Part shown: piece after piece, positions 5,275 through 25,462 of the stretch | How positions within the stretch are numbered: position 1 is the first letter of the stretch | Layout: each line of letters starts with the position of its first letter | Source of the DNA: Acidobacteriota bacterium | Lineage (GTDB): Bacteria; Acidobacteriota; UBA6911; RPQK01; JAJDTT01 | DNA: 64,000 bases | NCBI GenBank assembly: GCA_965209055.1 | Contig: OZ242374.1 | Location: 2,496,001 to 2,560,000, forward strand | Direction: 5' to 3' | The notes under the pieces: generated by a model | What the model saw: the letters and a program-made list of their open reading frames with translations, nothing else | Database searches by the model: none | What the model was told of the DNA's origin: nothing | Position numbers and translations under genes: made by a program

Positions 5275-5287
5275 GAGGACCAGAACA

Positions 5288-6811: not shown

Positions 6812-6850
6812 TGGATGTTTCACATGAGGAACAACCAAGAAGGGGGTGTG

Positions 6851-8188: not shown

Positions 8189-9042
8189 AAAAATGGAATG
8201 GAAGGGATTCGACGTCATTAAGCTGAACTGTTGGAAATTCGGATCAGTAGTCGGTGGCACATCATGAGAAATTTTCTTGAGAGTTCTCCCTTGAGCATAG
8301 GCGCCTTGGCTTTTCTGATTGGTCTTCTTCTTTTCCAAAGAGCCGAAGAGTTTGATCAACATCATAGTCATCATTCCTCTAATTCTCCCCTGACGGACCT
8401 GTTAGAACTGGAGACCCCGTTCGCAGAGACTATGCTCAAAACTCAGGATGGAGCTGGGTTGGAGTTGTTAGATCGTTGGACGTTTCTAATATACTCAGGT
8501 GCTCTGGACGAGCGTGGTTTCGACTATCCTGCCGTTTTGCTGAACCGGTACCATAAACGTGGGCTTAATTTTGTGTACGTTATGCCCTCAGCTAGTAACC
8601 CTGCCTGGCTACGATCCGTTTCAAGTTCTCTTAATGGCAGAGCACAAGGCTTTTCTATCGCTTTAGACGAGAGGGGAACGTTTGCAGAGTTGTTAGGTGT
8701 TCCGCGCGGCAGTCATGAGACATATACGGTTTTCGTAGGACCCGACACCCGAGTCAGGTTTGCTGTCCGGAAGAGTCTCCCATCAGATGTCATGCGCCAA
8801 CTCGTAGAACGCAATATTTTGGGGACGATAGACTACAGTCCTCCTTCTCCTCCTCCGGGCTATGTTGTTGGTTCACCGGTCCCCGAAATCGCTGTGCGCA
8901 ATGCCAGGACAGGGAGATCCATTCCTTTATCTACGCTTCTACAAGGACAAGGAACAGTATTGTTCTACCGTGCCAATTGCACGTCGTGCGGGATCGAATC
9001 TGAGATTCACAGACTCGCTACACTGGAAAGAACGGGAATTAA

Positions 9043-10231
9043 GGAAGGTCTGAACAAGTCGATTCAAGGGACGTGAGAGCCGTTATTGTTTCGGCTTTGC
9101 GGTGTCCAAACCTTCATTATGAGGAGTACCACCCTGGCAAGGCTCTGGGTGCCCCCATTCTCAGACTGATTCCCCGAATCTCGACGCACCTCTCCCGCGC
9201 CCGGATCAGGCGTTCACGCCAGAGCGCTCGGCGATCATCAGATTGGCGAACCCCACCAGCAAATAGATCCGTTGGGTGTTTTTCGCCAGCCCCCGGTAGC
9301 GCACCTTCGCGTAGCCGAAATGCCGTTTCAGGTACCCGAATACATGTTCTGCCTTGGCCCGAACCGACGCTTTGCGCCGCTCGGCCAACGCCGCCTCACT
9401 CTCCGGTGGCAGCCGCCAACGCTTCCCCGGCTTCATCATCACCTGCCAATCCACCGGCCGATCTCGATTCTCCGACCGCTTTCCCACTCCCTGGTATCCC
9501 GAATCCCCCCAAACTTGAGACTCCGAGCCGTGCAGCAACTCACCGGCTCGCGTCACGTCATGCTCGTTAGCCGGCGCCGTCACCACCGTGTGCGCCACCC
9601 CCGTCTGGGCGTCCACCCCCAGGTGGGCCTTCATTCCGAAATACCACTGTTTTCCCTTCTTCGTCTGATGCATCTCCGGGTCCCGCGCCCCCTCCCTGTT
9701 CTTGGTCGAGGAAGGCGCCGCCAGGATACTCGCGTCCACGATCGTCCCCCGGCTCAGCCGCAGGCCTTGCCGCTGCAGGTGAGAACCGATCTCCTCGAAC
9801 AGCGCCTCCCCCAGACCATGCTCCTCCAGCCGATGACGGAATTTCAGAATCGTCGTCTCGTCCGGCAGCGGCCCCGTGAGCTTCAGGCCCACGAACCGCC
9901 GCACCGACTCCACCTCATAGAGCAGATCCTCCATCCCCGGATCGCTCAGGTTGTAAAACAGCTGCACGCAGTGGATCCGAAGCATCGTCGAGAGCGGGTA
10001 GGGACGCCGTCCCCGTCCCGCTTTCGGGTAAACGGGCCGAATCCGGGCTTCCAACTGCTCCCATGGAATCAACCGGTCCATCCGGGCCAGAAATCTCTCC
10101 CGACGGGTCACCCGCTTCTTGCCGTCGTATTCCAGATCTGCGAACGTTCGTTGCGACATCATCTATCCTCCATGCAGTGATGATGGAAGAATTATCGTGC
10201 AGAACGCTGACTCGACTTAATCAGACCTTCC
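9043..10231 (-). mobile_element. IS5-family insertion sequence (1189 bp) with TTAA target duplication
   Basis: Inverted repeats GGAAGGTCTGAACAAGTCGA / TCGACTTAATCAGACCTTCC; TTAA at 9039-9042 and 10232-10235. Confidence 0.95.
9206..10162 (-). CDS. IS5-family DDE transposase
   Basis: TRRERFLARMD, GTIVDAS, RDPEMHQTKKGKQWYFGMKAH, GDSGYQG, RAKAEHVF. Confidence 0.95.
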   Translation of the reverse strand: MMSQRTFADLEYDGKKRVTRRERFLARMDRLIPWEQLEARIRPVYPKAGRGRRPYPLSTMLRIHCVQLFYNLSDPGMEDLLYEVESVRRFVGLKLTGPLPDETTILKFRHRLEEHGLGEALFEEIGSHLQRQGLRLSRGTIVDASILAAPSSTKNREGARDPEMHQTKKGKQWYFGMKAHLGVDAQTGVAHTVVTAPANEHDVTRAGELLHGSESQVWGDSGYQGVGKRSENRDRPVDWQVMMKPGKRWRLPPESEAALAERRKASVRAKAEHVFGYLKRHFGYAKVRYRGLAKNTQRIYLLVGFANLMIAERSGVNA

Positions 10232-10612
10232 TTAACATAGCCGAGCTGAAAACCTATGCCATTTTCAGTTACAGCTATTCGTGGCTAGACTTTAAGAGTG
10301 CCGCCGCGCGGTCGGGCGTTTCGTCTGAGATATACGTAGCAACTCATCTTATAACGGAATGGGAAGATCCGTATCGAACTGCGACTGAGCTTAATAGGCC
10401 CATGGCAATAGAAATCGTAGACAACTACATCGCTAAATCTACACCCCTGCCAACATGGATGTCAGCGAAAATCGCAGGCCACAGACAACGGACGTCGGTT
10501 GTCGCGCAACCAGGTCGAATCGGTGAAGACAGATGATTCGTAATCGAATTGAGTTACGGCCGACGTATCAACGTGGGTGGGCTCATACCGTAACAATGAG
10601 TTAGGAGATACC

Positions 10613-11620
10613 ATGCTCGGATTCCTGTTAATGTCTGCCACCATTGTATTTTCAGTCGGAGTGCTGGGAGCTTCATCGAGTGCCTCGACGGTAAGTTCAA
10701 TCGGTATAGAATCAATGTGTGCTGGCGACTTGTTCGCTTGGACTGGGGCGATTCAGAAATTCCAATCTGGACTGCTTGTGCTCGATCAGACAAATCACAG
10801 AATTGTTGTTGTGGGCAATGATGGAACAGCCAAGAATCAGTTCGGGGAGATCGGTCAAGGATACGGGGATCTATTGTTTCCTGAGGCGTTAGCGACGGAC
10901 ACTCATGGGCGCATTTATGTTGTGGACCATGGAAGTTCCTTTATCAAGATTCTTAACGTCGATGGCCAACCGATCACGAGATTTCCTATCGACACTTTCG
11001 TTGATAGCGTGACAGTAAATAGCCGTGGGCACATTCTCGCCAACACACCAAGAAAGGGAAGAATCGTTACCGTATATTCTTTTGACGGGGCTGAGATCAC
11101 GCGCTTTGGGGGACTGATGCCTCTAGATCTGGCGTATCCGGATCAAAACAATGAAGGCAATACAGAACACTGGACAATTCCACTGTCACGGGCGCATGTA
11201 GCAGTTGGTCCAGAAGACGAGATATATGTTGTCTTTAGACATGTGCCGATTGTCCGGAAATACTCCTCTTCAGCTAAGTTATTGTGGGAACACCGCATGA
11301 TGGGAGGGCCGATAGATTCACTCGTGAAGACATTTTGGTCGGAACCCGACTCCATACCTACCACGTCCGCCCGTAACGTGGATGGAGTTCAGTTGAGCAA
11401 CATAGTTATGGACGTTAGTCTGAGCGGTCACGATAATCTGGTGGTCTTGCTTGCTAATGGCGCCTTGTGCGCAATTGATCCTGAGGGGCGTCAGTTGTTA
11501 CTAGCCAAGCTTACGGGCGCCGCTCCACGTGTATATCGCAGTATAACAATCGTCCGGAACTCGTTGGTTCTGGTCGATAGGAGCACATGTTATCGCAGCA
11601 CAACACCCATCGAATTCTGA
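10613..11620 (+). CDS. Secreted 6-bladed beta-propeller (NHL-like) protein
   Basis: RBS AGGAG before ATG 10613; signal peptide; LVLDQTNHRIVV, GEIGQGYGDLLFPEALATDTHGRIYVVD. Confidence 0.8.
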   Translation: MLGFLLMSATIVFSVGVLGASSSASTVSSIGIESMCAGDLFAWTGAIQKFQSGLLVLDQTNHRIVVVGNDGTAKNQFGEIGQGYGDLLFPEALATDTHGRIYVVDHGSSFIKILNVDGQPITRFPIDTFVDSVTVNSRGHILANTPRKGRIVTVYSFDGAEITRFGGLMPLDLAYPDQNNEGNTEHWTIPLSRAHVAVGPEDEIYVVFRHVPIVRKYSSSAKLLWEHRMMGGPIDSLVKTFWSEPDSIPTTSARNVDGVQLSNIVMDVSLSGHDNLVVLLANGALCAIDPEGRQLLLAKLTGAAPRVYRSITIVRNSLVLVDRSTCYRSTTPIEF

Positions 11621-11742
11621 CGTAGTACCGTCTCCCATGAGGAGAAAATATGAAGATCAAGGATGCTGTTGCTAGAAGTCCCCCGCCCTCGCTATGGATA
11701 GAGAGGTTTATCATTCATGCTTTGACGAAGGAGGATAAGATC

Positions 11743-11955
11743 ATGTATTCCATTCCGCGAAAACTGGGAACTGTTTCGTATCTGGCGGTGTGTGTATGTA
11801 TGTTGGTGGTGGGAGCCGCACGGACCAATTCTATCTTGGCTTCCTTTTGTTCTGTCAACTGTTCAGATGGCAGCAGTTGTTCAATTTCATGTAGTAATAA
11901 CGCCAATTGTGGTTGCAGTTGGTGGTCGGGCGCCTACTGTTATTGTGACAGCTAA
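11743..11955 (+). CDS. 70-aa secreted Cys/Ser-rich peptide (candidate precursor)
   Basis: Strong RBS AAGGAGG; Sec-like signal ending ILA; core SFCSVNCSDGSSCSISCSNNANCGCSWWSGAYCYCDS. Confidence 0.85.
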   Translation: MYSIPRKLGTVSYLAVCVCMLVVGAARTNSILASFCSVNCSDGSSCSISCSNNANCGCSWWSGAYCYCDS

Positions 11956-11983
11956 CGACAGCAGCACTACACCGGCATGACAG

Positions 11984-12021
11984 GTGCGGCGGCGGCGATG
12001 CATCGTTCGCCGCCGCCGCAC
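11984..12021 (+). terminator. 15-bp GC-rich hairpin after the peptide gene (mRNA stabiliser or attenuator; no U-tract)
   Basis: GTGCGGCGGCGGCGA-8 nt-TCGCCGCCGCCGCAC perfect inverted repeat. Confidence 0.7.
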
Positions 12022-12085
12022 GTAGCCTAGTGTTCGCACAGGTAGCGAGTTCGGTATTTTGGTCGAAGCAACGGAGCTCGGATCC

Positions 12086-12547
12086 ATGAAGATATATCGA
12101 CGGTCTCCGATCATATTTGGTGTGCTGGCAGTAGCATTGAGTGGGGGGATAACGGTGTTGGTTATGCTCCTCCTGCAGGGTGACGGGCCACATTTGTCAT
12201 TTGATGAGAGGGTTGTCGATTTTGGCACTTTCAATCATGACAGTAAGATCGAACACAAATTCTCTTTTACAAACCGGGGCGATGCGACCCTGAAGATACT
12301 ACGTGTAGTGAGCGACTGTGGTTGCACGGTATCCACGGTAACCTCCAGGCGGTTGGCTCCGGGGGCCTCCGGAGCGATAACTGTTGCCGTCGAGCCACCA
12401 ATCAACGCTCCTGCCTATATAAATGCTCCCGAATCCGAAACTGTGTGGAGAGAGGTCCGGGTGTTCAGTAACGATCCCCAGGAACCATTGCAAGTGTTAG
12501 TGCTCAAAGGTGAGATGGATCGTCGGGATCCTTCTCTTTCTAAATGA
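12086..12547 (+). CDS. DUF1573 Ig-like domain protein, membrane anchored
   Basis: FSFTNRGDATLKILRVVSDCGCT motif; N-terminal TM segment. Confidence 0.85.
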   Translation: MKIYRRSPIIFGVLAVALSGGITVLVMLLLQGDGPHLSFDERVVDFGTFNHDSKIEHKFSFTNRGDATLKILRVVSDCGCTVSTVTSRRLAPGASGAITVAVEPPINAPAYINAPESETVWREVRVFSNDPQEPLQVLVLKGEMDRRDPSLSK

Positions 12548-12574
12548 TCTGCAACCGTAATGGGAGGCTGACGA

Positions 12575-14140
12575 GTGAATATAGGTTGGGTTAAAACAGT
12601 GCTCAGGACAGGTTGGATATCGGGCTTCTGCCTGGTCGTACTGTTCGGACTTTTGGTCCGGACATACAATCTTGGTGAGGCCGGACTATCGTGCAACGAA
12701 TTCGTAACCATACTCACATCACTTCGAGAGGATAGGGAGATAGGCAGCCAATCCAATACACCGTTCACACCAATAACTCTAGATCACGCGGCGGCCACCG
12801 TTACGCCGAGCTCAGATTCCGGAATGCTCAGTGTCGCCGAAGCTGCTAGAGAGAAATGGCAGTTGCCTATGTATTTCTGGATGATGAATGGATGGATTAA
12901 ATTATTCGGAAACTCAGAATTGAGCATCAGGCTGCCTGCGGCACTTATGGGGTCCTTCTCTATCGTCCTAGTGTTTTTGATTTGCAGGCTCATTTTCGAC
13001 ATACGAGTTGCGATTCTTGCTGCTCTCTCCGTCTCCGTCCTGGCAGGTCACATTGAGTTGTCACGAGAAGCGACTTCGCATGTGTTCCTTCTGGGAGTAA
13101 TCCTAGCATCGACATTCTTGGTGCTTGTTTCATGCTTCCAGTCAGCGTCACGTGTTGCATTCGGCGCATACTTGATTACTTCGATCATTGGCATGTTTAC
13201 ACATTATCTCTATCTCCCATACGCTGCCTGTCATGTGATGATCATGCTCTATGGCCTTCGGATGCCAAAGTCACCCATTAATACACTGAAAGCATCGGTA
13301 TCCGTAATAGTATTTTTACTCGGGGTTGTTGGCGTATGCATTATGACACCCTTGTACAGTTCTACGCCATGGCAACATTTGGCACCATTGAAATCGGATA
13401 GTTACATTTACGATGTAGGTAGTGGGGCAGTGGGCGTGATATGGTCCAAGGGCCTGCCCCTTCTCGCAAACTCGTTTGACATTGTTGTCGCGATTACTCT
13501 TATTGTTGTGTCTTTTCGGCTTCTTTCCAAAAGAGAGTCCTCTGCCGTAGTCTTAGGTCTGTGGTTTGCAATACCATTGATCGTTGTTGCGGCGTTGGAT
13601 TTTACCAGTGGGACTGGATTCTTGGGATTGCCGGAATTGTGGATGATACTCGGTTTTCCCGTTCTGCTGGTCATTGCATCGGGCATGGATTGGCTGTTCA
13701 ATAAACCGCTAGGTAGGGAGGCATTGATAGTGTATCTTTCTTGTCTTACCGCTAGTGGCCTGTGGGTCCATGTCAGCGCAACGGATGGACAAGTTGACCA
13801 GCATCGGCAGTTGACGGAGTTTATTGAATCCGTCACGGATACAAATAGCGATGACATCACAATTGTAGAAGGCGGTGAAATCGCCAAGGGAGCAATCGCC
13901 TATTATGCCCGGAGAAATCTGACTATGAAGATATGGGAACCAAACACATTGATGTCACCGTCGAGTTCTGAACTTGATGAGTTTCTTTTGCCCGCTGCCA
14001 TGCGAGGTGCGAAAATTCGATTGGTCACTTTCGGGAATAGCGACGGTAACATAAGACGCCGGGTGGAAGAAGTGGGATTTCGGACCACTGGAGACGACAG
14101 GCGATTTGGCCATGTAAATGTCTATCAATATACATGGTGA
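12575..14140 (+). CDS. GT-C fold glycosyltransferase (GT39/PMT_2, ArnT-like)
   Basis: LVRTYNLGEAGLSCNE, PMYFWMMNGWIKLFGNSELSIRLPAAL, IELSREA; many TM segments. Confidence 0.8.
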   Translation: MNIGWVKTVLRTGWISGFCLVVLFGLLVRTYNLGEAGLSCNEFVTILTSLREDREIGSQSNTPFTPITLDHAAATVTPSSDSGMLSVAEAAREKWQLPMYFWMMNGWIKLFGNSELSIRLPAALMGSFSIVLVFLICRLIFDIRVAILAALSVSVLAGHIELSREATSHVFLLGVILASTFLVLVSCFQSASRVAFGAYLITSIIGMFTHYLYLPYAACHVMIMLYGLRMPKSPINTLKASVSVIVFLLGVVGVCIMTPLYSSTPWQHLAPLKSDSYIYDVGSGAVGVIWSKGLPLLANSFDIVVAITLIVVSFRLLSKRESSAVVLGLWFAIPLIVVAALDFTSGTGFLGLPELWMILGFPVLLVIASGMDWLFNKPLGREALIVYLSCLTASGLWVHVSATDGQVDQHRQLTEFIESVTDTNSDDITIVEGGEIAKGAIAYYARRNLTMKIWEPNTLMSPSSSELDEFLLPAAMRGAKIRLVTFGNSDGNIRRRVEEVGFRTTGDDRRFGHVNVYQYTW

Positions 14141-14225
14141 TATGCCGTGCGTTCGAACGAGTCCGTTGTCCGATCACCCTGTAAGCGCAACATTCACGAG
14201 TAGGAATTTCAGGAGTAGCAGGGCC

Positions 14226-15053
14226 ATGAAAGTAAATGGAACAGTATCCCCGGAACGTAAAGTGGCGATTGTTGGGTTCGCGCCGACAACGAGGCATCAA
14301 GCACCGTTTTTCGACGATGAGTTCGAGATATGGGGGTTGAACGAATTGTACATGTTCATCCCTCGATTTGACAGGTGGTTTGAGATGCATAGGCGTGACG
14401 AATTTGAGAATAGCATAAGAAACAATCGGCACTTGGAGTGGTTGAGGAAGTGTAAGAAACCTATCTATATGCAGGAGCATTTCGATGATATTCCGGGATC
14501 GATTGAATATCCGAAGGAGCGAATGGTCAAGGCCTTTGGAAACTACTTTCGTAGCACTTTCAATTATATGCTGGCCTTGGCAATTGATGAGCAATTCACT
14601 CATATTCACCTATACGGGATTGATTTGATAAGCAAGGGTGAATACATTGAGCAGCGGCCGAGTGGAGAGTACTTTTTGGGTATAGCAAAAGGTAGAGGCA
14701 TTGAAGTCCGTGTTCCCCCCGACTCGTCCCTTCTGAGGGAGGGTGCGTATGGATACGATCAGTATACTGTGGCGGAACAATACGAGATCCGGTTAAACGA
14801 GCTGACAATTCGCAAGCGGAAACTGGAAGGTGATCTCAATCAGGTCATGGGTTCTATTGGAGAATGCCAAGGGCAAACGAAGGTTGGGGCTCCGGGTGTA
14901 TCGTCGGTTACGCAGCTACTGAAGTTGTCGTTAAGTAGTAAACTGCGGCTGAGGATCGAGGCGTTACAGGACCAGCATCGCGTCTTGGCAGCGGAACTCA
15001 ATGTTGTCCTGGGTGCAATTAATGAGTGTAAGTATTGGATGTCACGAGGATAG
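14226..15053 (+). CDS. Putative CMP-nonulosonate-dependent transferase (CstII/GT42-, Maf-like fold) with C-terminal coiled coil
   Basis: RKVAIVGFAPT, EFEIWGLNELY and STFNYMLALAIDEQFTHIHLYGIDL parallel the CstII-type motifs; adjacent to a CMP-NulO synthetase. Confidence 0.55.
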   Translation: MKVNGTVSPERKVAIVGFAPTTRHQAPFFDDEFEIWGLNELYMFIPRFDRWFEMHRRDEFENSIRNNRHLEWLRKCKKPIYMQEHFDDIPGSIEYPKERMVKAFGNYFRSTFNYMLALAIDEQFTHIHLYGIDLISKGEYIEQRPSGEYFLGIAKGRGIEVRVPPDSSLLREGAYGYDQYTVAEQYEIRLNELTIRKRKLEGDLNQVMGSIGECQGQTKVGAPGVSSVTQLLKLSLSSKLRLRIEALQDQHRVLAAELNVVLGAINECKYWMSRG

Positions 15054-15212
15054 ATGTGCCACGTAGTCGGACGGAGTATCTGCAAAGTTGTGAGAATGAG
15101 TGAGCCAAGGATAAAATGTACGCGGCCGTATCCGGCGGGGAAAGGGAGAAACCTGACGGGGGTGGTTGCTGGTGAGGGGTATGTACACAAGTGTGAAAGG
15201 GTGAAGAGCTTG

Positions 15213-15923
15213 ATGAAACCGATTTGCGTGGTTCCGGCTAGGGGCGGGTCTAAGCGACTTCCTCGAAAGAACATAATTGAGCTGGCGGGTAAGCCATTGG
15301 TGGCGTGGGTCATTGGCGCCGCGAGGAGATCCGGCATATTTGCTCATGTATATGTTTCGACCGAAGATGACGAAATCAAGGCGGTTGCCGAGCGTTATGG
15401 CGCGGAGGTCCCGTTCCGACGACCGCGAGACTTGGCGAATGATTCGGTCAGTGCCATAAAAGCAGCTGCACATATGGCTGACACGCTACGCAAGATGGGA
15501 GAAAGGTTTGGAACAGTTTGCGTCAGTGCACCGACCGTACCGCTATTGACGGCAAGAGAGTTTTGCTTCGCCTATGAAATGTTTCGGTCGAGTGGGGCGG
15601 ATGTTCTGTACAGCGTGTGCAAGATGGAAGAGCCACCGCAGTGGGCTCTCAGGCGCAGTGGTAGATGGCTTACACCTTTATTTGACGGCGACAGTTTCGA
15701 AAAGGAGTCGCAAGACCTCGAACCTGCTTACCGAATAGTCGGAGGAATCCAGTTTTTCCGTGCGGATCATCTCAGGCGGAACAGCAATACGTACATAGCC
15801 GATAAAATGATCGGTTACGTGATTGGGCCGGAGATAGGAGTGGAAATCGACACAGCGGAGGATTTACGCAAAGCGCACTATTATCTTCAGCGGCGGGCGT
15901 CGAGGGAGATTGGGTCGATGTGA
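15213..15923 (+). CDS. Acylneuraminate cytidylyltransferase (NeuA/PseF family)
   Basis: VVPARGGSKRLPRKNI, VSTEDDEI, VPFRRPRDLAND, EIDTAEDL. Confidence 0.9.
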   Translation: MKPICVVPARGGSKRLPRKNIIELAGKPLVAWVIGAARRSGIFAHVYVSTEDDEIKAVAERYGAEVPFRRPRDLANDSVSAIKAAAHMADTLRKMGERFGTVCVSAPTVPLLTAREFCFAYEMFRSSGADVLYSVCKMEEPPQWALRRSGRWLTPLFDGDSFEKESQDLEPAYRIVGGIQFFRADHLRRNSNTYIADKMIGYVIGPEIGVEIDTAEDLRKAHYYLQRRASREIGSM

Positions 15924-16071
15924 TGGAATCGCTATGGAGGCGGCGAGTCCATCTGATTTCTGGTGATGAGGGAGAACATGTGTGCTGAAGGCGAGCCTGA
16001 CCGGCGAGAGCGTGTCTAAAGCAGTTTGCTTCCTGGAGGGGGGTGAAGACGTCGGGCTGGAACCTCACACC

Positions 16072-17385: not shown

Positions 17386-18752
17386 AGCCCGAGTTTTTCT
17401 ATGCGCCGGTAGAGGGCGGTTCGGCTCAGCCCCAAGCTTCGAGCGGCGTGGCTCACGTTGCCGCCGACGCGGGCCAGCACCTTGCCGATCAGGACGCCTT
17501 CGGCTTCCTCCAGGGTCATCATCTCCAGCGGATTCGAATCGGGCGAGTCCGCAGGGAGGCTCAGATCCTCCACCGAAATGGAGGACTCCCGGGCAAGTAG
17601 GACGGAGCGCTCCACCACGTGACTGAGTTCCCGGACGTTTCCCGGCCACGAGTAGTGAGCCAGTGCCGCCAGTGCCGGTTCGCCGAATCCTTCCAGATTC
17701 CTCCGGTATTTCTGGTTGTATCGGCCCAGGAAGTGGTTGGCCAACAGAAGGATGTCCTCGCCCCGGTCCCGGAGTGGTGGCAGGTGGATCTCCACTGTGT
17801 TGAGACGAAACAGGAGATCCTCCCGAAACCGGCCGCGGTTCACCTCCTGCTTCAGGTCGGCGTTGGTGGCCGACAGCACCCGCACGTCAACGTTTCTGGT
17901 TCGGGAGGAGCCGACTCGCTGCATCTCTCCGCTTTCCAGGACCCGGAGGAGGTTGGCCTGTTGGCTCACGGGAATGCTGGTGACCTCGTCCAAAAGCAGC
18001 GTTCCTCCGTCGGCCAGCTCGAAGCGGCCGATTCGATCGGTACGGGCGTCGGTGAAGGCGCCCTTGACGTGGCCGAACATCTCGCTGACGAAGACACCTT
18101 CAGAGAGTCCTCCCAGATTGACGGCTACAAGAGGCATTGAGGCGCGAGCGGAGACCGAATGCAGAGTTCGGGCCACCACTTCCTTGCCGGTGCCGTGGTC
18201 TCCTGTGATCAGCACGTGGGCGTCGGAGGGTCCTACCCGGGTGATCAGATCAAGGACGGGCCGCATGACCCGCGACTGTGTGATCAGACGAACGTTTTGC
18301 CGAGAGCGTAGGACCCGGTTCTCCTCCTCCAGACGGCGGCCTAGCCGTAGCGCCCGCCGAATTTCGATCTGGCTCTTCAAGACTATGAGCAGTCGCTCGT
18401 TCTCCCAGGGTTTCGGAATGAAGTCCCGCGCACCGCGCCGCATGGCTTCCACAGCCAGGTCGATTGTGCCCCACGCGGTCATAACGACCACGCGCAGCGA
18501 GCTGTCCACCGACAGCAACTGCGTCAGAAGATCGAGTCCCTCCCGGCCCGAAGTCGTGTCCCGAGCATAGTTCATGTCCATCAGAACGACATCGAGGTCG
18601 AGACGCCGCGCGCACTCCAGGATACGGTCCGGAGTGTCGGCGGTGGTGATTTCGTAGCCCTCGCTCTTTAGCAGGAGGCGGAGGGAAAGGAGCACGTCGG
18701 CCTGATCGTCGGCGATCAGAACGCGGGGTCTTTTGGAACGGGTATTTGTCAT
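17382..18752 (-). CDS. NtrC-family sigma54-dependent response regulator
   Basis: Receiver domain, GDHGTGKE, GAFTDA, LLDE, WPGNVREL, Fis-type HTH. Confidence 0.95.
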   Translation of the reverse strand: MTNTRSKRPRVLIADDQADVLLSLRLLLKSEGYEITTADTPDRILECARRLDLDVVLMDMNYARDTTSGREGLDLLTQLLSVDSSLRVVVMTAWGTIDLAVEAMRRGARDFIPKPWENERLLIVLKSQIEIRRALRLGRRLEEENRVLRSRQNVRLITQSRVMRPVLDLITRVGPSDAHVLITGDHGTGKEVVARTLHSVSARASMPLVAVNLGGLSEGVFVSEMFGHVKGAFTDARTDRIGRFELADGGTLLLDEVTSIPVSQQANLLRVLESGEMQRVGSSRTRNVDVRVLSATNADLKQEVNRGRFREDLLFRLNTVEIHLPPLRDRGEDILLLANHFLGRYNQKYRRNLEGFGEPALAALAHYSWPGNVRELSHVVERSVLLARESSISVEDLSLPADSPDSNPLEMMTLEEAEGVLIGKVLARVGGNVSHAARSLGLSRTALYRRIEKLGL

Positions 18753-18780
18753 CTGGTTCGTTCGTCACGGCGGCAGACAG

Positions 18781-21291
18781 TCATTCGTGGCGTAGCGCCT
18801 GCATCGGTTCCAGCTTGGTGATTCTATAGGCTGGAACCCCGGACGCCAGCAGGGATACAGACAATACCACTAGGGTGGCGATCAAATACGTCACCGGACC
18901 GAATGAGTCCAAATCGGACAGGAAGGAACTCATCAGTTGACTTAGGCCCAATGCCAAACCCAACCCAATGAATAGACCGATGGTCACCAGCACGAGGGAT
19001 TGTTTGAGGATCAGCCAAACCGCATGGTTCCGTGTTGCTCCCAGCGCCAACCGAACTGCGATCTCACGGGTTCGTCGTACGACCGAATGGGAGAGGACAC
19101 CGTAGAGTCCAACCGAAACCAAGATGAGGGCCAACAGGCCAAAGGAGCCCAACAGGAAATTCACGCGTAGCCACAGGGCGACGCTCTCCGCGATCGTTGC
19201 CGATAAGGATGGCGGTCCGTAGGTCGGCAGATCGGGGTCCAACTCGTGGACCGCTTGGCGCATCGAGGCAACCGTGCCGGAAGTCTGCTGTTGTCGCGAT
19301 CGAGCCAGGGCGGTGAAAGTTCCCTGATATTGCTGGAGCAAGGAAAAGTACACATGGGGATTCTGGTGGCCTCCCAGCCGGCGATGCCGGATCTCGCCGG
19401 CGACTCCGACCACTTCCCAGCGTCCTGAGTCGGAAAAGATCTGCCGCCCAATGGGATCGGCGTTGGGCCAGAATCGCTCGGCCACCGGCTGACTGATGAT
19501 GGCGACCAGCCGAGAGTCCTGATCGTCTGTCCAACGAAAGTCGCGACCCCGGATCAGTGGAATACGGATCGTGTCGAAGTATCCAGGGCCGACGGAATTT
19601 GATTCGATTTGAATCCGTTCCTCATTATTCTTGCGGATGGAAGTCCCGTAATAGCTTTTGGCCGCAGGGGAGAATTGCGCCAGGGTCGCGGATTCTATTC
19701 CCGGTGCCGACTCGATCCGTCGCAGAAGTTGTCGTTGGAACAGTGCGCCTCGTGTCTCGTCGTACCCCTGGGTGGCCACGTCAACGGACATTGAGCCCAC
19801 ATTTGCCGGGTCGAACCCCAAATCCTGAGCGAGTCGATCTCCCAGCGTCCGGATGGAAAACCCGGCCGTGACCAGAAGTGCAAAGGACAATGCCACTTGG
19901 ACGATGACCAGACGATGCCGCCAGCGACCATACTGGGTACTACTGGACGCCCCTGTGGCCCTGAGTACCGAAAAGAGGTCGATTCGGCTGGATTGAGTCG
20001 CTGGAGCGAGACCGAAGATGATGGCAGTTACCGATGAAAGGAACATAGTGAACAACAGCGTGCGGTTGTCCAGTTCCAAGCCGAAGTTCAACAGATCCGG
20101 CCGGACGAGATGGTCGGGGACCGAGAGCACACTGGTCACTGCTATGATCCAGGGTGCCACTATGGTCGCGGCGACGCCTCCGGCAAGAAAGAGCATGGTG
20201 GTTTCGGTGAGCAGGTAGCGCAACAGACGCCGCCGACTGGCTCCGGCAGCCAGACGAATTGCCATCTCGAGCCTTCTTTCCCCGGCGCGGGAGAGGAGTA
20301 GATTGGCGACGTTGGTGCAAGCAATGAAAAGTACGGAGCCCATGATCACACTCAGGATGATTCCGAAGATCCAGAGTTGGGGGCCTGTTTGTTGGCCAGT
20401 CGTTCCCCGGTGTCCTGGAGCCAGGCGCAGGACTCGATCCTTCCAGCCGGAGTCTTCCAGTTCCAGTTGGGGAACAATCGCGGCCAGACTGGATTGAGCA
20501 CCTTCCAAATTGATATCGGATTTGAGCCGTCCGATCAGGTTTAGCCACGGGTGGTTCGCCTCGTCGAGGCGATTCGGCGGCGACACTTGTGGCTGCATCA
20601 TTATGGGCACCCACAGGTCTGGTTCCCCGGAGATTCCTTTGAAATGCGAGGGCATGACTCCCACCAGAGTGAATGGGTGGCCGTTCACCTTTACGGTTTT
20701 TCCAACAATCTCTCGATCGCCGTGAAACCGCGTTCGCCAAAGACGATCACTGATCATGGCCACCGGATGCAGTCCGGGAGCTTGTTCCTCCTCCGATAGA
20801 AAGCCCCGGCCGACGCTGGGCTCAATCCCCACGACCTCAGTGAAGTTGGCCGAAACCATTTCTCCTGGAAGCCTTTCCGTGAATCCATCGGCGCTAAGGT
20901 GGGCTCTGAACGGGCTCCGTGCAATCAGACCCGAGAAAGCTTGGTTGGCCTCCCTGATCCTGAGGTAGGCGGGAAACGAGAAAACTTGGTTGGTGCTGTC
21001 GTGCCGTCTTTGCCCGGCAGAACCGAGACTCACGATCTCGTGGGGATTCGGCACTGGTAGTGGGCGAAATAAAAGGGTGTCGACCAGAGTGAACACTGCC
21101 GTATTCACACCGATCCCCAGAGCCAAGGTCGCAATGACGACGACTGTGAAGCCAGGTTTCCTGGCTAACGTCCGGAACGAGAGCCTGAGATCCCGGACGG
21201 TGTCCTCCAGATGGAGAAGCAGGCTGCGCGACTGTTTGTTCGGCATCGTATGGGTATCATTGGGAGAGACGGGGCCGGAAAATCCATTCAT
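18781..21291 (-). CDS. ADOP/MacB-type duplicated ABC permease
   Basis: DLRLSFRTLARKPGFT, IACTNVANLLL, RRTREIAVRLALGA, LEPMQALRHE. Confidence 0.9.
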   Translation of the reverse strand: MNGFSGPVSPNDTHTMPNKQSRSLLLHLEDTVRDLRLSFRTLARKPGFTVVVIATLALGIGVNTAVFTLVDTLLFRPLPVPNPHEIVSLGSAGQRRHDSTNQVFSFPAYLRIREANQAFSGLIARSPFRAHLSADGFTERLPGEMVSANFTEVVGIEPSVGRGFLSEEEQAPGLHPVAMISDRLWRTRFHGDREIVGKTVKVNGHPFTLVGVMPSHFKGISGEPDLWVPIMMQPQVSPPNRLDEANHPWLNLIGRLKSDINLEGAQSSLAAIVPQLELEDSGWKDRVLRLAPGHRGTTGQQTGPQLWIFGIILSVIMGSVLFIACTNVANLLLSRAGERRLEMAIRLAAGASRRRLLRYLLTETTMLFLAGGVAATIVAPWIIAVTSVLSVPDHLVRPDLLNFGLELDNRTLLFTMFLSSVTAIIFGLAPATQSSRIDLFSVLRATGASSSTQYGRWRHRLVIVQVALSFALLVTAGFSIRTLGDRLAQDLGFDPANVGSMSVDVATQGYDETRGALFQRQLLRRIESAPGIESATLAQFSPAAKSYYGTSIRKNNEERIQIESNSVGPGYFDTIRIPLIRGRDFRWTDDQDSRLVAIISQPVAERFWPNADPIGRQIFSDSGRWEVVGVAGEIRHRRLGGHQNPHVYFSLLQQYQGTFTALARSRQQQTSGTVASMRQAVHELDPDLPTYGPPSLSATIAESVALWLRVNFLLGSFGLLALILVSVGLYGVLSHSVVRRTREIAVRLALGATRNHAVWLILKQSLVLVTIGLFIGLGLALGLSQLMSSFLSDLDSFGPVTYLIATLVVLSVSLLASGVPAYRITKLEPMQALRHE

Positions 21292-21330
21292 AATCAGTAC
21301 GCTCCCTTCCGATCAGTAGCATCCACGGTT

Positions 21331-22029
21331 CTATGCTGCCTCATTCTCGTCGACGATCTGACCGTCGAAGAGGTGGACGGTCCGCTCGGCATGTTCGGCA
21401 TAGCGGGGATCGTGGGTCACGATGCAGACGGTCGACCCTTCCTGGTGCATCTTTCCTAGAAGTTCCATGACGGCTCCACCGTTTCTGGAGTCCAGATTCC
21501 CGGTAGGCTCGTCCGCCAATAGAATCGCCGGTCTGCCCACCAACGCCCGCGCCACGGCGACGCGCTGTTGTTGACCGCCCGAGAGCTGCGCGGGGTAGTG
21601 GTTCATCCGGTGGGACATGCCGACCCGCTCCAGGGACTCCTCCACGCGCCGGCGCCTCTCGACCCGTTTCAGGTTGCGGTAGGTCAGCGGCAACTCCACG
21701 TTCTCGAATACCCGGAGATCGCCGATAAGGTTGAAGTTCTGGAAGATGAATCCGATCTCCCGGTTTCTCAGGTGGGTCCTCTGGGCGAAGGAGAGGCCTG
21801 CCACCGGGTGGCCGTGGAGGTAGTATTCCCCGGCCGTGGGAGCGTCCAGCAGTCCCATGATAGAGAGCAGTGTGGACTTGCCGCAGCCCGAAGGGCCGGC
21901 AATCGAGACGTACTCACCCTTCCTCACCCCCAGGTGGACCCCGGACAGGGCGTGGGTCTCCACCTCCTCCGTCAGGAAGATCTTGGTGATCCCGTTCATC
22001 CGAATCAGCCATTCTCCGTTTCCATTCAT
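21331..22029 (-). CDS. ABC transporter ATP-binding protein (LolD/MacB-like)
   Basis: GPSGCGKST, LSGGQQQR, LLADEPTGNLD. Confidence 0.95.
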   Translation of the reverse strand: MNGNGEWLIRMNGITKIFLTEEVETHALSGVHLGVRKGEYVSIAGPSGCGKSTLLSIMGLLDAPTAGEYYLHGHPVAGLSFAQRTHLRNREIGFIFQNFNLIGDLRVFENVELPLTYRNLKRVERRRRVEESLERVGMSHRMNHYPAQLSGGQQQRVAVARALVGRPAILLADEPTGNLDSRNGGAVMELLGKMHQEGSTVCIVTHDPRYAEHAERTVHLFDGQIVDENEAA

Positions 22030-22059
22030 CGGTTCTTCTCCTTGGTCTGATCTCTGCGC

Positions 22060-23313
22060 CTATTCCAGTCGGATCCGGTCATGATCTTTCCATTGGGCCA
22101 TGTCCGAGAGCACCACATGATCTCCGACGTTCAGGCCCTCCATAACTTGAATCTCGCTGACCGAGCTGGCCCCCAATTCGACGCGGACCCGGTGGGCGTG
22201 AATCCTGTCCGGCTCGATCCGGAAGACGCTGGCGGAGCCGTCCTCCTGGCTGAAGCCGGGCCGCGGCATATAGACGACGTCGGCTAGATGCTCCAGTTCC
22301 ACGGTTCCGTCCACGCTCAGGTCGGGGCGCGCCCCTCGGGGCAGTTCTCCCTCCAACGCCACGTCCACAGTGACTAGCCCCTCCTTCACTGCAGGGGCGA
22401 TCCGCGAAACCCGTCCTGGGACGACGCCGTTTCGAGTATCGATCTCCGCCTTTTGACCCACCTCAAGATCCCGTGCTTGGGTCGCCGCCACCTCGATCTC
22501 CGCCTTGAGCCGGCTGGGTTCGGCGATGCGGAGCAAATTCGTGCCCGGAGTGACCTGCTGGCCGACTTCCACCTCCACCTGTTGCAGCACTCCGGAGATT
22601 CCGGGACGCACTCGCAAGGACTCCAGTTGGCTCCTCCGCAGTGAGTGGAGCAGACGCCGCTGCTCGACCTCGGCCCGCTTGGCCTCCAGTTGGGCCTCCA
22701 GAGATTTGGAGAAGATGTCCGTCCTTCTCTTTTCCAGCAGACGTTGAGTCTCAAGGGCCTCGGCTTTGCTTCGGCTGATCTTTGTATCCATCTCCGAGAC
22801 TAGGCCCTCGCGAAGCAGAGCGGCGTCCGCCTCCGCCTTAAGGGTCGCCTCCAGATAATCTGACTCGACGCTGGCGGCGTCGGCTTGGCGTTGCATCTTC
22901 TCGCTTTCGAGCTGGATCCGGAGATGGGCCATCTCCGCTTCGCTCCGTTTCAACTGGCTCTCCGCATCCAGAGCCTGCTGCTCCAGCTCGGGATTGCTCA
23001 ACTCCAGGAGAACCGTCTGGGGAGTGACCCGTTCTCCCGGGTTAATCAGGATCCGCTCGACGCGGCCCTGGGTGGCGGCGGGAATCCAGCGGATGATCTC
23101 GGGGATCAGCTTGCCCAGGCCGCGAATGCGGCGGGTGAGTTCGCCCCGCTTGACCTCCCCCATCCAGAGGGTGGATCGGTCGACACGGGGAGCGGCCGGC
23201 TCCAGGCGGGAAAGGCCCGCGCTGATGGCGGCAATGGAGACGATCACCGACAGCAGGTAGAGAGTGTGTCTGATTTTGCGTCGGCGGGCGGCGAAAGGTC
23301 TTTGGATGTCCAT
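22060..23313 (-). CDS. Efflux periplasmic adaptor (HlyD/MacA family)
   Basis: TM anchor, GRVERILINPG, coiled coil, VRPGISGVLQQVEVEVGQ; RBS AAGGAGG. Confidence 0.9.
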   Translation of the reverse strand: MDIQRPFAARRRKIRHTLYLLSVIVSIAAISAGLSRLEPAAPRVDRSTLWMGEVKRGELTRRIRGLGKLIPEIIRWIPAATQGRVERILINPGERVTPQTVLLELSNPELEQQALDAESQLKRSEAEMAHLRIQLESEKMQRQADAASVESDYLEATLKAEADAALLREGLVSEMDTKISRSKAEALETQRLLEKRRTDIFSKSLEAQLEAKRAEVEQRRLLHSLRRSQLESLRVRPGISGVLQQVEVEVGQQVTPGTNLLRIAEPSRLKAEIEVAATQARDLEVGQKAEIDTRNGVVPGRVSRIAPAVKEGLVTVDVALEGELPRGARPDLSVDGTVELEHLADVVYMPRPGFSQEDGSASVFRIEPDRIHAHRVRVELGASSVSEIQVMEGLNVGDHVVLSDMAQWKDHDRIRLE

Positions 23314-23340
23314 GCTGTACCTCCTTGTGCTGTACATCCT

Positions 23341-23356
23341 AGCAATCAGTGTGCCA
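23341..23356 (-). promoter_or_regulatory. sigma54 -24/-12 promoter of the exporter operon
   Basis: Reverse complement TGGCACACTGATTGCT, identical to 6796-6811. Confidence 0.85.
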
Positions 23357-23430
23357 AGTTTAGGGAAAGAGTCAAATGTATGTAATTCAATGACTTATAC
23401 GAAATCGGACATTTGAGTCCGAAACCCCGA

Positions 23431-23468
23431 GTGTCCGGTTCCGGGATCACGCGTCCGGTATCGGACAC
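23431..23468. promoter_or_regulatory. Tandem UAS palindromes
   Basis: GTGTCCGGTTCCGGGATC and GCGTCCGGTATCGGACAC, 20-bp spacing. Confidence 0.75.
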
Positions 23469-23584
23469 TTGGACCATAACGGGGAGAAGGACTTCGAGTA
23501 AGTAGAAAAAAACAGATCGGCACGGTCCGGATGCCTTAGGACCGGCGGGATGTGGTGCTGCTCAACCACCGGAGAGCCTCCCAT

Positions 23585-25321
23585 CTAATCACGGCGGGCC
23601 AGTACGATGTCGTTGCTGTCGACGAGGGTGTACATGGCCTTCTCCAAGTCGGTCACGGCCTGCTGATAGTCCACGCGCGCCCTCAGCTCCTGCACCTGCG
23701 ACTGGCTGAGATCACGCTGATACCGGAGCACCTCGAAGTTGGTGGACAGGCCGGCCTGGAAACGCTTGTTCTCCCCCTCCAACTGCGCCTCTGAGAGCTG
23801 TCGAGCAACGCGGGCCGCTTCCAGCCGCTTCCTCTGGGTGGCGATGCTCTCGTAGGCGTTGCGCACTTCCACGATGATCATCTGCTGCTGGTTCTTGCGC
23901 TGACTGGCGAGTTGGCGGTCCCGGATCAGCAGGCTGGCCCTCTCCGCCTTGTTGGCACGGTTCCTCAGGGGAATCTCCACGCTGACGCCGAGAGTGTAGT
24001 TGATGTAATCGAACCCGAAGACCTGACCCCATGAATTTCCGAAGCCGCCGAAAAACGGATTCGACGGCTGGGGCACGTTCTGCAAACGGGTGTCTGGGAC
24101 GCCGTCTCCGTCCGTATCCACGAACTCGCTCCCGAAGATCTCGCCGGCCCGCCCCGTATTGGTCAGGCTCGCCACCAGGTCCACGATGGGCCTGCCGTCC
24201 TGTTTGTAATACTCCCGATCCACTTCCACCTGTTCCCGGAGCAGCCGGTTCTGTTCCAGTTCTGGACGCCTCTCCATGGCCCTGGCGATGGCCTCATCCA
24301 GCGTGATGGCCAGGTCCTGGACTTGTGGAAGCTGAGTCGGGATCAAGGTCATATTCCAAATGGGTGCCGTCGGGTCGGGCGCCAAATGGCGCTTGAGTCC
24401 ATTCTGCGCGGTGATGATCTGGACCTCCGATTGGATCATCTCTTGCTCTCGCGTGGCCACCTCGGCCCGGGAGGCGGTGATCTCGATGGACGCCATGACG
24501 CCGATCCGGACTCGCTTTTGATTGTTCTCGTGCTGGATGATGGCCAACTCCATGGACTTGCGAATAGCCTCGTAGCTCTGAATGGCGAACACCAGCTCCC
24601 AATACTGGTTCTGCACCTGTTGGACGATCTCCGACACCTTCTGTTGGAACTGGCTTTCGCTGATTTCCGTCTCCAGGTTGTAGAGCTTGAGCTCGCGCCT
24701 GGTCTGGGTCTTACGGAATCCCCTCCAAAGCGGCTGGCGTAGCGAGACTGCGAAATTGGATCCGAAAGAGGGGTTCATGAAGGAGAAGGCGCTGTTAGTG
24801 CTGAAGCGGTTGTTGTTGAAGTTCAAAGTGAGGCTGCTTCCGTTGGGCAGATTCTGCACCAGCGACGTATCGAAGTAGATGAGGCCCGTCGTGTTCACTG
24901 GGATTCCCTGACCGGCGTCCAGGATGGACCGGGCCGGGTTTTCGGTGGCCGTCCAGCCTACCTCGACCCGCAGCCGGGGATCGTAGAAGCCCTTGCTTCT
25001 GAAGATATTCTGGCGGTTCAGATCCTCGTTGTAGTCCTCGATGGCGATCTCCAGGTTGTTGGTCAGCGCCAGACGGATGGCGCCCTTGACGCTCAACTCC
25101 CGCACCGGACTCTCCCGGCGCATCCGGTCCGCCCACGACTCGGGCCTGTCGATCGCTGGCATTTCTGATTGGGCCTGATCAAAGGCCATTTTCTCTAGAG
25201 GACCAGCTCGCAAGAATGGCACGGTCAACACGAGAAGAATCGGAAGGACGATCCCCGCAAGCGGATCGTGGGTGCGTCTGATTCTGCCTCGGCGATCGGC
25301 GAATGGTCTTGGGATATTCAT
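23585..25321 (-). CDS. TolC-family outer membrane efflux protein
   Basis: LSVKGAIRLALTNNLEI, SLRQPLWRG, YWELV, SVEIPLRNR, ENKRFQAGLSTNFEVL; start codon uncertain. Confidence 0.9.
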   Translation of the reverse strand: MNIPRPFADRRGRIRRTHDPLAGIVLPILLVLTVPFLRAGPLEKMAFDQAQSEMPAIDRPESWADRMRRESPVRELSVKGAIRLALTNNLEIAIEDYNEDLNRQNIFRSKGFYDPRLRVEVGWTATENPARSILDAGQGIPVNTTGLIYFDTSLVQNLPNGSSLTLNFNNNRFSTNSAFSFMNPSFGSNFAVSLRQPLWRGFRKTQTRRELKLYNLETEISESQFQQKVSEIVQQVQNQYWELVFAIQSYEAIRKSMELAIIQHENNQKRVRIGVMASIEITASRAEVATREQEMIQSEVQIITAQNGLKRHLAPDPTAPIWNMTLIPTQLPQVQDLAITLDEAIARAMERRPELEQNRLLREQVEVDREYYKQDGRPIVDLVASLTNTGRAGEIFGSEFVDTDGDGVPDTRLQNVPQPSNPFFGGFGNSWGQVFGFDYINYTLGVSVEIPLRNRANKAERASLLIRDRQLASQRKNQQQMIIVEVRNAYESIATQRKRLEAARVARQLSEAQLEGENKRFQAGLSTNFEVLRYQRDLSQSQVQELRARVDYQQAVTDLEKAMYTLVDSNDIVLARRD

Positions 25322-25333
25322 GCGGAACATCTC

Positions 25334-25349
25334 AGCAATCCGTGTGCCA
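25334..25349 (-). promoter_or_regulatory. sigma54 -24/-12 promoter of tolC
   Basis: Reverse complement TGGCACACGGATTGCT. Confidence 0.8.
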
Positions 25350-25424
25350 AGGTGGGACGAGATCTACATCTGCTGTTATGTCAATAAGATACTGGAATCC
25401 AAAACGAACGGACGCACGATCCAA

Positions 25425-25462
25425 GTGTCCGTTTCCGGGACAAAGTGTCCGTTATCGGACAC
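25425..25462. promoter_or_regulatory. Tandem UAS palindromes
   Basis: GTGTCCGTTTCCGGGACA and GTGTCCGTTATCGGACAC, 20-bp spacing. Confidence 0.75.

Follow-up and report, generated by a model that had tools for sequence, protein, structure and literature searches.

A horizontally acquired, strain-variable cassette in an Acidobacteriota genome carries a Cys-rich peptide gene and a member of an unannotated family with a predicted sialyltransferase fold

Maf is a soluble cytoplasmic enzyme that adds pseudaminic or legionaminic acid to serine and threonine residues of flagellin. In Haemophilus influenzae, sialylation proceeds without a synthase: the CMP-Neu5Ac synthetase SiaB (CMP, cytidine monophosphate) and the GT42 transferase Lic3A modify lipooligosaccharide (LOS) with a sugar that comes from the animal host. 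The glycocins, among them sublancin and glycocin F, are disulfide-bonded, glycosylated ribosomal peptides whose sugar is a hexose attached by a GT2 enzyme and whose precursors carry a double-glycine leader and leave through an ABC-peptidase exporter. Mycobacteriophages encode glycosyltransferases that decorate capsid proteins, and we know of sugar decoration of phage virions only from these phages, with sugars other than sialic-acid-like ones. Here we describe a seven-gene cassette (8191–16071) of an Acidobacteriota bacterium, which lies in a window of 64,000 nucleotides (contig OZ242374.1, positions 2,496,001 to 2,560,000 of the forward strand; by the window we mean this whole stretch, and coordinates are counted within it). 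The cassette encodes a Cys-rich peptide, three putative envelope helpers, a glycosyltransferase of the GT-C type, a cytidylyltransferase and a protein that we call X311.

The reading that we favour, and to which we give about an even chance, is that this is a mobile cassette in which X311 and the cytidylyltransferase, together with the redox helpers, act on the Cys-rich peptide or on its partner protein. A peptide-glycosylation cassette is plausible. The initial annotation of this DNA had proposed a secreted, possibly nonulosonylated peptide with its own folding, glycosylation, export and sensing genes. From that interpretation we retain a cassette, found here to be mobile, that plausibly makes and modifies a secreted disulfide-rich peptide, and the CstII-like call for X311; we do not retain the exporter and sensor, the nonulosonic sugar, or the roles given to the GT-C, NHL-repeat and DUF1573 proteins.

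X311 (14226–15053, + strand) is a protein of 275 amino acids (aa). It has no Pfam family at E ≤ 0.01, no NCBIfam or PHROGs family and no match to PF01973 (DUF115). Its AlphaFold model (AF2), built from 48 sequences (predicted local distance difference test 90.3, predicted template modelling score 0.72), consists of a Rossmann-like domain at residues 7–171 and a coiled-coil hairpin at residues 178–275. Foldseek aligned the model with CstII (1ro7) at an E-value of 6.1e-6, a probability of 1.0 and template modelling (TM) scores of 0.40/0.45, and with the CstII/Cst-I structures as a group at E-values of 6e-6 to 4e-4 and TM scores of 0.38–0.45. Structural comparison gave a Z-score of 11.1 over 159 residues with Maf (5mu5) and of 10.9 with Cst-I (2p56), and MptE-like kinases were lower-scoring fold matches. 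In the viral structure library BFVD, the top ranks went to uncharacterised proteins from uncultured tailed phages; a DUF115 protein came ninth, and a giant-virus GT29 protein was also among the lower ranks. CstII was likewise at the top of a PDB profile search, at a non-significant level (E 0.09, 15 bits), with an N-terminal K-K-V-x-I-x-G-x-x-P strand and a YM.A.AI..G[FY]KEI.L.G[VI]D segment in register. A collection of 5.8 billion proteins holds 115 homologs of X311, none with a Pfam domain and all named 'hypothetical protein' except for one 'predicted transcriptional regulator YdeE'; the closest relatives are 49–64% identical. The model thus places X311 in an unannotated family with a sialyltransferase (CstII/Maf) fold, and the CstII-like label holds at the fold level (Foldseek E 6e-6; Z 10.9).

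Relatives of X311 were searched for in one-genome-per-species contigs, with a 12-row alignment as the query, and in IMG/VR viral contigs. Sixteen loci in the former, spread across many phyla, encode a relative, and five of these (L011, L012, L016, L019 and L022) have it inside a phage head module. IMG/VR contains 154 stretches that code for a relative; the 80 loci retained from it are not independent, several being near-identical. The 16 bacterial-contig loci and the 80 viral loci make up the 96 other X311 loci referred to below. Capsid neighbours in the viral loci were called by tblastn with Pfam-identified capsid proteins. Of the 80 viral loci, 55 carry a capsid homolog on the X311 strand no more than 5 kb upstream of X311. 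Among the 51 loci whose sequence extends 3 kb or more upstream, 43 have one, and the gap most often seen is about 1 kb. Pfam searches of 14 viral loci placed a major capsid gene upstream of X311 in 12 of them. The remaining two of the 14, L084 and L115, beside terminase or portal genes, show the order NeuB, X311, UDP-GlcNAc 2-epimerase (NeuC) and cytidylyltransferase (CTP_transf_3/NeuA). Across the 80 viral loci, a cytidylyltransferase homolog is present in 13, NeuB in six and the epimerase in six, and a cytidylyltransferase lies near X311 in the bacterial loci L009, L010, L015 and L020. A single one of 50,697 deposited phage records, L155 (PP496355.1; Microcystis phage Mvi-Yong1342-1), encodes an X311 homolog (5905–6708), just before the small terminase gene.

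Based on the fold and these neighbourhoods, we infer that X311 transfers a CMP-activated ulosonic acid, in phages likely to a virion protein. The portions of the literature available to us hold no account of the X311 family, of capsid sialylation, of NVEALA-type loci, or of a sialyltransferase-fold or nonulosonic-acid case in phages.

Two other features of these loci deserve mention. In phage loci, a gene of 200–280 aa without a Pfam family regularly lies between the major capsid gene and X311 (L094, 7016–7855; L087, 6973–7740; L038, 7025–7627), and the spacer genes of L094 and L087 have no PHROGs family either. The spacer product may be the true acceptor, as a decoration protein. The bacterial loci L015 (897–2231) and L020 (2185–5573) encode a cytidylyltransferase-HAD phosphatase fusion, ATP-grasp enzymes, an HpcH-type aldolase and two cytidylyltransferases, a gene content that hints at NeuB-independent routes to ulosonic acids.

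A second locus that joins Cys-rich peptides to X311 is L010, which spans 20.7 kb in genome G200, of the same genus as the window genome. We scanned the 96 loci for small open reading frames (ORFs) with at least six Cys in the last 45 residues; 65 of 7654 ORFs passed, mostly junk frames, and three in L010 look real (one of 72 aa and two of 77 aa, with basic-hydrophobic N-termini and 8–9 Cys). When seven bacterial loci were screened more strictly, for Cys-rich ORFs that bear a signal, L010 alone had any. The order on one strand is peptide ORFs, X311a, a membrane-anchored 194-aa protein with a CVWC motif, and X311b, followed by a CarboxypepD_reg-repeat protein, a cytidylyltransferase, a PseH-like GNAT protein and a probable methyltransferase. 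X311a is 31% and X311b 42% identical to the X311 of the window. The CVWC protein has weak Thioredoxin_2/Redoxin matches with near-full profile coverage; pairwise comparison found no similarity between it and the thioredoxin (Trx)-like protein of the window, whose gene is cut by an insertion sequence (IS). L010 is flanked by an integrase fragment, its GC content is below that of its surroundings, and its peptides are confined to G200 among 31 relatives. Next to these genes are those for two membrane proteins, one of the MauE/DoxX type (16380–16901) and one of the 8xMP family whose tail is Cys-rich (17910–18806).

The window locus and L010 thus share a secreted Cys-rich peptide, a Trx-like CxxC protein, X311 and a cytidylyltransferase, and differ in their remaining genes. 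That the same four ingredients have been kept while the shared X311 diverged to 42% identity argues for a functional link. The GT-C, NHL and DUF1573 genes are not recurrent.

The cassette itself is inherited as a block. The window genome, G000, is a single 6.08-Mb contig (98.4% complete), which we compared with eight same-genus genomes (congeners), with a wider set of 301 genomes of the phylum, and with metagenome contigs of four runs labelled sponge metagenome (X5–X8), aligned to window positions 5500–16500. No DNA match to 5773–16050 was found in any of the eight congeners; the flanks (5000–5772 and 16051–17000) do match. The window carries a lower-GC stretch of about 48–53%, with 60–68% GC on either side. 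GC at third codon positions (GC3) is 0.45–0.56 in the seven cassette genes, as against 0.66–0.81 in the pump and sensor genes to their right, and 0.62 in the gene to their left, so the lower GC reported for the + strand genes is real. The left neighbour (6854–8188, + strand) encodes a putative lipoprotein of helical repeats without a family match. It is accessory, since it has no protein-level match in any of the eight congeners.

In one contig from X8 the lipoprotein gene is present, but the DNA from 8191 to 16071 is replaced by 937 other letters, so that the lipoprotein gene adjoins the histidine kinase gene. The seven genes from the Trx-like gene to the cytidylyltransferase gene were therefore gained or lost as one block, which fills exactly the space between two convergent genes. 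A 9.8-kb contig from X7 spans 5506–15959 at about 92% identity. This sister cassette joins 9038 directly to 10232 and is thus IS-free with an intact Trx-like gene; it is free of indels across 10232–12043, which holds the NHL and peptide genes. Short contigs from X5 and X6 agree near-perfectly with portions of the cassette, and a contig of 238,588 bp encodes NHL, DUF1573, GT-C, X311 and PseF-like proteins, each of which falls into one 90% cluster with its window counterpart. The sister cassettes, about 8% diverged in DNA, keep full-length proteins that are 91–95% identical where the search gave a figure. Thus, 8191–16071 is a horizontally acquired, strain-variable cassette of 7.9 kb (6.7 kb without the IS), and its seven + strand genes are one co-inherited unit, in line with the initial annotation: one contig skips the block, another holds a whole IS-free copy, and GC3 is homogeneous throughout. 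The sister cassette of X7 has 70 additional letters at 12043–12047, directly after the hairpin described below, between the peptide gene and the DUF1573 gene. A remnant of an ABC ATPase gene, recognised by eye, marks the left side of the accessory DNA (about 6241–6560, − strand); its signature and Walker B region are readable before it is interrupted.

An ORF listing and family scans (Pfam and NCBIfam for all window proteins, PHROGs as the phage-family library) confirmed the inventory that had been drawn up for the locus. The redoxin with CxxC, beta-propeller, eight-Cys peptide, hairpin, DUF1573 protein, GT-C transferase, CstII-like protein, cytidylyltransferase, pump and two-component genes are all present where they had been placed; the labels 'redoxin' and PseF are weak.

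The putative peptide precursor (11743–11955, + strand) is 70 aa long, follows a GGAGGA ribosome-binding site and starts with a signal-like N-terminus. Its 37-aa core holds eight Cys and 11 Ser in the pattern C-x3-C-x5-C-x3-C-x5-C-x-C-x7-C-x-C. It is predicted to be a Sec-type secreted, Ser- and Cys-rich orphan. The gene is single-copy in its own genome, and the 301 phylum genomes gave two weak matches only, both with internal stops. The best score in the ESM Atlas was 0.82, below the lead level of 0.9. Loci of the NVEALA type had been suggested as a parallel; we found no Pfam family for the peptide, NVEALA included, and the DUF5128 score of the neighbouring propeller (16 bits) is under its cut-off of 22.9, so the likeness is not upheld. 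A perfect 15-bp GC-rich hairpin lies 3′ of the gene (11984–12021, + strand; z −3.6) and is not followed by a T-run; it may be a stabiliser or a partial terminator.

Three further cassette genes encode candidate envelope proteins. The first, a membrane-anchored Trx-like protein, is split. Its N-terminal part (8264–9037, + strand) has a CTSC motif just before the break, and its C-terminal part (10234–10536, + strand) is by eye in frame once the IS is removed. The AhpC-TSA match (E 2.9e-4, 21.2 bits) is under the cut-off of 26 and covers profile positions 1–43 only, where the IS cuts the domain. The IS is an IS5-family element (9039–10234, − strand) with 14-bp terminal inverted repeats and a transposase with DDE_Tnp_1 and DUF772 domains at 9206–10162. 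Nine identical copies in G000 indicate that transposition is recent or ongoing, and a 92% identical copy occurs in congener G088. The second is a secreted NHL-repeat beta-propeller (10613–11620, + strand; PF01436, 25.4 bits, cut-off 20). The third is a membrane-anchored DUF1573 protein with a CGC motif (12086–12547, + strand; PF07610, 70.3 bits against a cut-off of 26.1). Its OS_HP2 score (60.5 bits) is under the cut-off of 100, no PDB relative was found by sequence, and a metagenome scan with the protein gave no match.

The GT-C glycosyltransferase (12575–14140, + strand) is a divergent multi-span membrane protein of the PMT_2 family (PF13231, 46.7 bits against a cut-off of 26.1). A word-indexed protein search, limited to 8000 candidates, returned one homolog, in the sister cassette; within the phylum, no relative exceeds 31% identity over the core, and no PDB relative was found by sequence. 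Its first periplasmic loop reads N-E by eye, without alignment, where D-E is usual. GT-C enzymes act in the periplasm from a lipid-linked donor.

The start of the cytidylyltransferase (15213–15923, + strand) was set by comparison with the sister protein of 236 aa. The enzyme matches PF02348 with 76.7 bits (cut-off 22.6). As the CMP-nonulosonic acid synthetase that it had been called, it holds up in part: the nearest type is PseF/NeuA, and the PseF model TIGR03584 is missed at 176.7 bits against a cut-off of 205.7, with profile positions 1–219 of 222 covered. The other PF02348 gene of G000 is KdsB.

We propose the following model. The cassette would have landed in the intergenic space between a lipoprotein gene driven by sigma-54 and a core sigma-54 two-component/ADOP-MacB efflux cluster, on the 3′ side of the latter. 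In the envelope, the Trx-like CxxC protein, the NHL propeller and the DUF1573 protein with its CGC motif may be helpers for the oxidative folding or handling of the peptide. In the cytoplasm, the cytidylyltransferase would make a CMP-activated ulosonic acid and X311 would transfer it. X311 most likely puts the ulosonic acid on a protein-type acceptor, because its phage relatives adjoin capsid genes and sit in NeuB/NeuC/NeuA clusters. The best candidate acceptor in the cassette would be the Cys-rich peptide or its partner protein, because the highly diverged L010 keeps peptide, Trx-like protein, X311 and cytidylyltransferase together. The pump and sensor next to the cassette would be older neighbours outside the system, contributing at most read-through from a neighbouring sigma-54 promoter.

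Several results weigh against this model. A six-frame search of G000 for PF03102 (NeuB) gave one match of 32 bits, which is DAHP synthase, and G417/G200 likewise has only a weak DAHP-type match; neither genome encodes a NeuB-family synthase, so the nonulosonic acid that had been proposed as the sugar is not supported. True NeuB genes are present in the genomes of L008 and L009. Without such a synthase, the donor sugar may be scavenged or may be another 2-keto-3-deoxy acid, or the X311/cytidylyltransferase pair may be idle. The family scan found no flippase or polyprenyl-phosphate glycosyltransferase in the cassette that could serve the GT-C enzyme. By eye, neither X311 nor the cytidylyltransferase has a signal or a membrane segment, so that both look cytoplasmic, whereas the peptide, with its Sec-type signal, looks exported. 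The X311 homolog of L155 is annotated as a 'type 11 methyltransferase', a label to which the fold search gives no support.

The distribution of the genes is a further difficulty. None of the 80 viral loci has a tblastn homolog of the GT-C, NHL, DUF1573 or peptide genes, and the 96 other X311 loci gave no tblastn match to these or to the Trx-like protein. The GT-C enzyme had been paired with X311, and this pairing is not borne out, the only PMT_2 gene in those 96 loci being one 6 kb from X311 in L009. Among 1.84 billion protein representatives, the peptide matches itself and five long repetitive proteins, with no small-peptide homolog. The glycosylation genes were expected to co-occur with homologous peptides; no small-peptide homolog turned up in the 301 phylum genomes or in these representatives with which they could do so. 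No signal-bearing Cys-rich ORF was found in L008, L009, L015, L018 or L020 (L013, at 1,854 bp, is too short to count). Both peptide/X311 loci belong to one genus and are not fully independent. Last, the Trx-like gene is broken in this strain, and the IS may be polar on the downstream cassette genes.

The same observations lend themselves to another explanation, which we consider possible and rather doubtful: two unrelated modules, one making a disulfide-rich peptide (bacteriocin-like or metal-binding), the other, made up of GT-C, X311 and cytidylyltransferase, remodelling a surface glycan or protein with a scavenged ulosonic acid. Thirteen of the 80 viral loci, as well as L009, L015 and L020, do have X311 and a cytidylyltransferase but no homolog of the peptide, NHL, DUF1573 or GT-C genes. 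A genome without a synthase fits scavenging, and a cytoplasmic X311 with an exported peptide, as read by eye, fits a separation of the two. Moreover, the cassette or a variant of it is present in all four sponge-metagenome runs, a setting where surface mimicry could pay. However, unrelated modules would hardly explain why the genes for the peptides, the Trx-like protein and both X311 paralogs of L010 are interleaved on one strand, or why the seven window genes are kept or lost as one block. Genes for lipopolysaccharide or exopolysaccharide synthesis, such as a flippase or a polyprenyl-phosphate glycosyltransferase, are missing from both loci.

We think it unlikely that the cassette is a decaying mobile or phage-derived fragment without a present function in this strain. 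Decay would account for a Trx-like gene split by an IS that has nine identical genomic copies, for a genome without a sugar synthase, for the ABC ATPase remnant at about 6241–6560 and for X311 being mostly a phage gene. It would not account for the state of the rest: six of the seven cassette genes are intact, an IS-free copy exists, and the sister cassettes, at about 8% DNA divergence, keep full-length proteins, with the NHL and peptide genes indel-free.

The genes to the right of the cassette are all on the − strand. They encode a PAS histidine kinase (HK; 16072–17649, the ORF being an upper bound), an NtrC-type, sigma-54-dependent response regulator (RR; 17382–18752; Sigma54_activat, 205.5 bits), an ADOP-family duplicated MacB-type permease (18781–21291; TIGR03434, 793.8 bits against 622.3), an ABC ATPase (21331–22029; PF00005, 115.9 bits), an HlyD/RND-type membrane fusion protein (MFP; 22060–23337; TIGR01730, 109 bits against 94.9) and a TolC-type outer-membrane factor (23585–25330; OEP family PF02321, 142.3 bits). 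All pump parts score above the family cut-off, and the ADOP family is typical of Acidobacteriota according to its NCBIfam name. The genes from HK to MFP are core genes. A collinear HK-RR-ADOP match that starts about 20 bp past the HK stop codon is found in six of the eight congeners, at 82% identity over 16051–23473 in G260 and at 90–91% over 16581–25833 in G303; G301, G302, G148 and G170 show a similar collinear match, with additional permease paralogs. G088 and G200 have no collinear HK-RR-ADOP match among the matches listed. Because the pump and sensor are collinear in six of eight congeners that have no cassette, they are core and older than the cassette. At another site of the genome (C1: 5792517–5794188) lies a paralog of the TolC-type gene (23585–25256) with 85% identity; in most congeners the best TolC match lies away from the pump cluster, so that TolC adjacency varies. 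Further right, a repeat of about 315 bp (about 26182–26500) has at least ten more copies at 82–97% identity in the same genome and one 92% copy in G088; it may be MITE- or REP-like.

Sigma-54 promoters follow the −24/−12 consensus TGGCAC-N5-TTGCW. The form TGGCAC-N5-TTGCT occurs without mismatch three times in the 64 kb. One site, TGGCACACTGATTGCT, precedes the lipoprotein gene (6796–6811, + strand) and is identical to the second, which precedes the string MFP-ABC-ADOP-RR-HK (23341–23356, − strand); the third precedes the TolC gene (25334–25349, − strand). When up to two mismatches are allowed, 27 sites are found, which is not above chance (mean 20.75). Inverted repeats lie 80–130 bp upstream of each of the three perfect sites: one of the GTGTCCG...CGGACA type, a candidate enhancer site, before the lipoprotein promoter (6671–6712, + strand), and repeats of the GTGTCCG/CGGACAC type before the MFP (23427–23472) and TolC (25423–25465) promoters. 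The promoter motif that had been said to be shared is thus present, as three perfect predicted sites, each with an upstream palindrome. Congeners keep two sigma-54 promoters in their copies of the cluster. A terminator scan gave counts not above those of shuffles, with none convincing between 8188 and 8264. Read-through into the cassette from the neighbouring sigma-54 promoter could occur, as a consequence of the landing place. The pump and two-component system had been taken as dedicated to the peptide; their collinearity in six of eight cassette-less congeners and the finding of no ABC, MFP, TolC, HK or RR homolog in the 20.7 kb of L010 speak against this, and autoinduced control is not supported. 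The complete pathway of Sec export, oxidative folding, Ser nonulosonylation via GT-C and CstII-like enzymes, MacAB-TolC-like export and autoinduction is therefore very improbable: the same sigma-54 promoter and palindromes do stand before TolC, before the MFP operon and before the lipoprotein gene at the head of the + strand genes, no terminator is predicted between that gene and the cassette, and MacB-type pumps can take periplasmic peptides, but the pump and sensor occur in six congeners that have no cassette, G200, which has L010, shows no collinear cluster among the matches listed, no nonulosonic-acid synthase is encoded, and GT-C does not recur beside X311.

If our reading of X311 is right, a family that is absent from Pfam, NCBIfam and PHROGs, with 115 homologs and 154 viral relatives, gains a testable sialyltransferase-fold function. 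Its place after the major capsid gene, together with the NeuB/NeuC/NeuA clusters, would point to virion decoration with sialic-acid-like sugars. X311 beside fast-evolving secreted Cys-rich peptides and Trx-like proteins at two loci would give a handle on bacterial sialic-acid-type glycopeptides. The boldest version, in which X311 founds a new family of protein-directed CMP-ulosonic-acid transferases, phages sugar-coat their capsids with it and an Acidobacteriota lineage uses it to make undescribed secreted disulfide-rich glycopeptides, we put forward as a speculation that we would not bet on. The picture of the locus has also been corrected, as the pump and sensor are not parts of the system. 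We believe that the most interesting product, which lies partly outside the original finding, is an unannotated family with a predicted sialyltransferase fold that is regular in phage head modules.

How does this locus compare with the described systems? In the predicted fold of its N-terminal domain, X311 resembles CstII and Cst-I (GT42), and it is often beside a CMP-ulosonic-acid synthetase. It differs in having no significant sequence match to them and an additional C-terminal coiled-coil hairpin. Furthermore, CstII and Cst-I belong to LOS loci whereas X311 usually belongs to phage head modules, and the likeness is known at the level of the fold, not from catalytic residues. Maf (DUF115) is the best-covering fold match (5mu5, Z 11.1) and has a protein acceptor, as the capsid neighbourhood of X311 suggests for this family too; however, X311 is about half the size of Maf, has no PF01973 match and no flagellin context. 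SiaB and Lic3A of H. influenzae parallel the cassette in that a cytidylyltransferase and a CstII-like transferase occur in a genome without a NeuB-type synthase. The acceptor there is LOS, whereas the neighbours here are a peptide and redox helpers.

The glycocins resemble the cassette in having a small Cys-containing ribosomal peptide near a glycosyltransferase and genes like those for thiol-disulfide oxidoreductases. However, the cassette has no GT2 or peptidase-ABC domain, the core ABC pump next to it has no peptidase domain, the leader of the cassette peptide is signal-peptide-like, and the candidate donor would be CMP-activated. As in the MacAB-TolC/ADOP pumps, permease, ATPase, MFP and OEP are all present at the locus, although here the pump is a core feature of the genus that is not tied to the cassette. 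Last, the glycosyltransferases of mycobacteriophages have other folds and use other sugars than those we read for X311, and the likeness to mycobacteriophage virion glycosylation lies in the capsid-decoration role that the genomic position of X311 in phages suggests.

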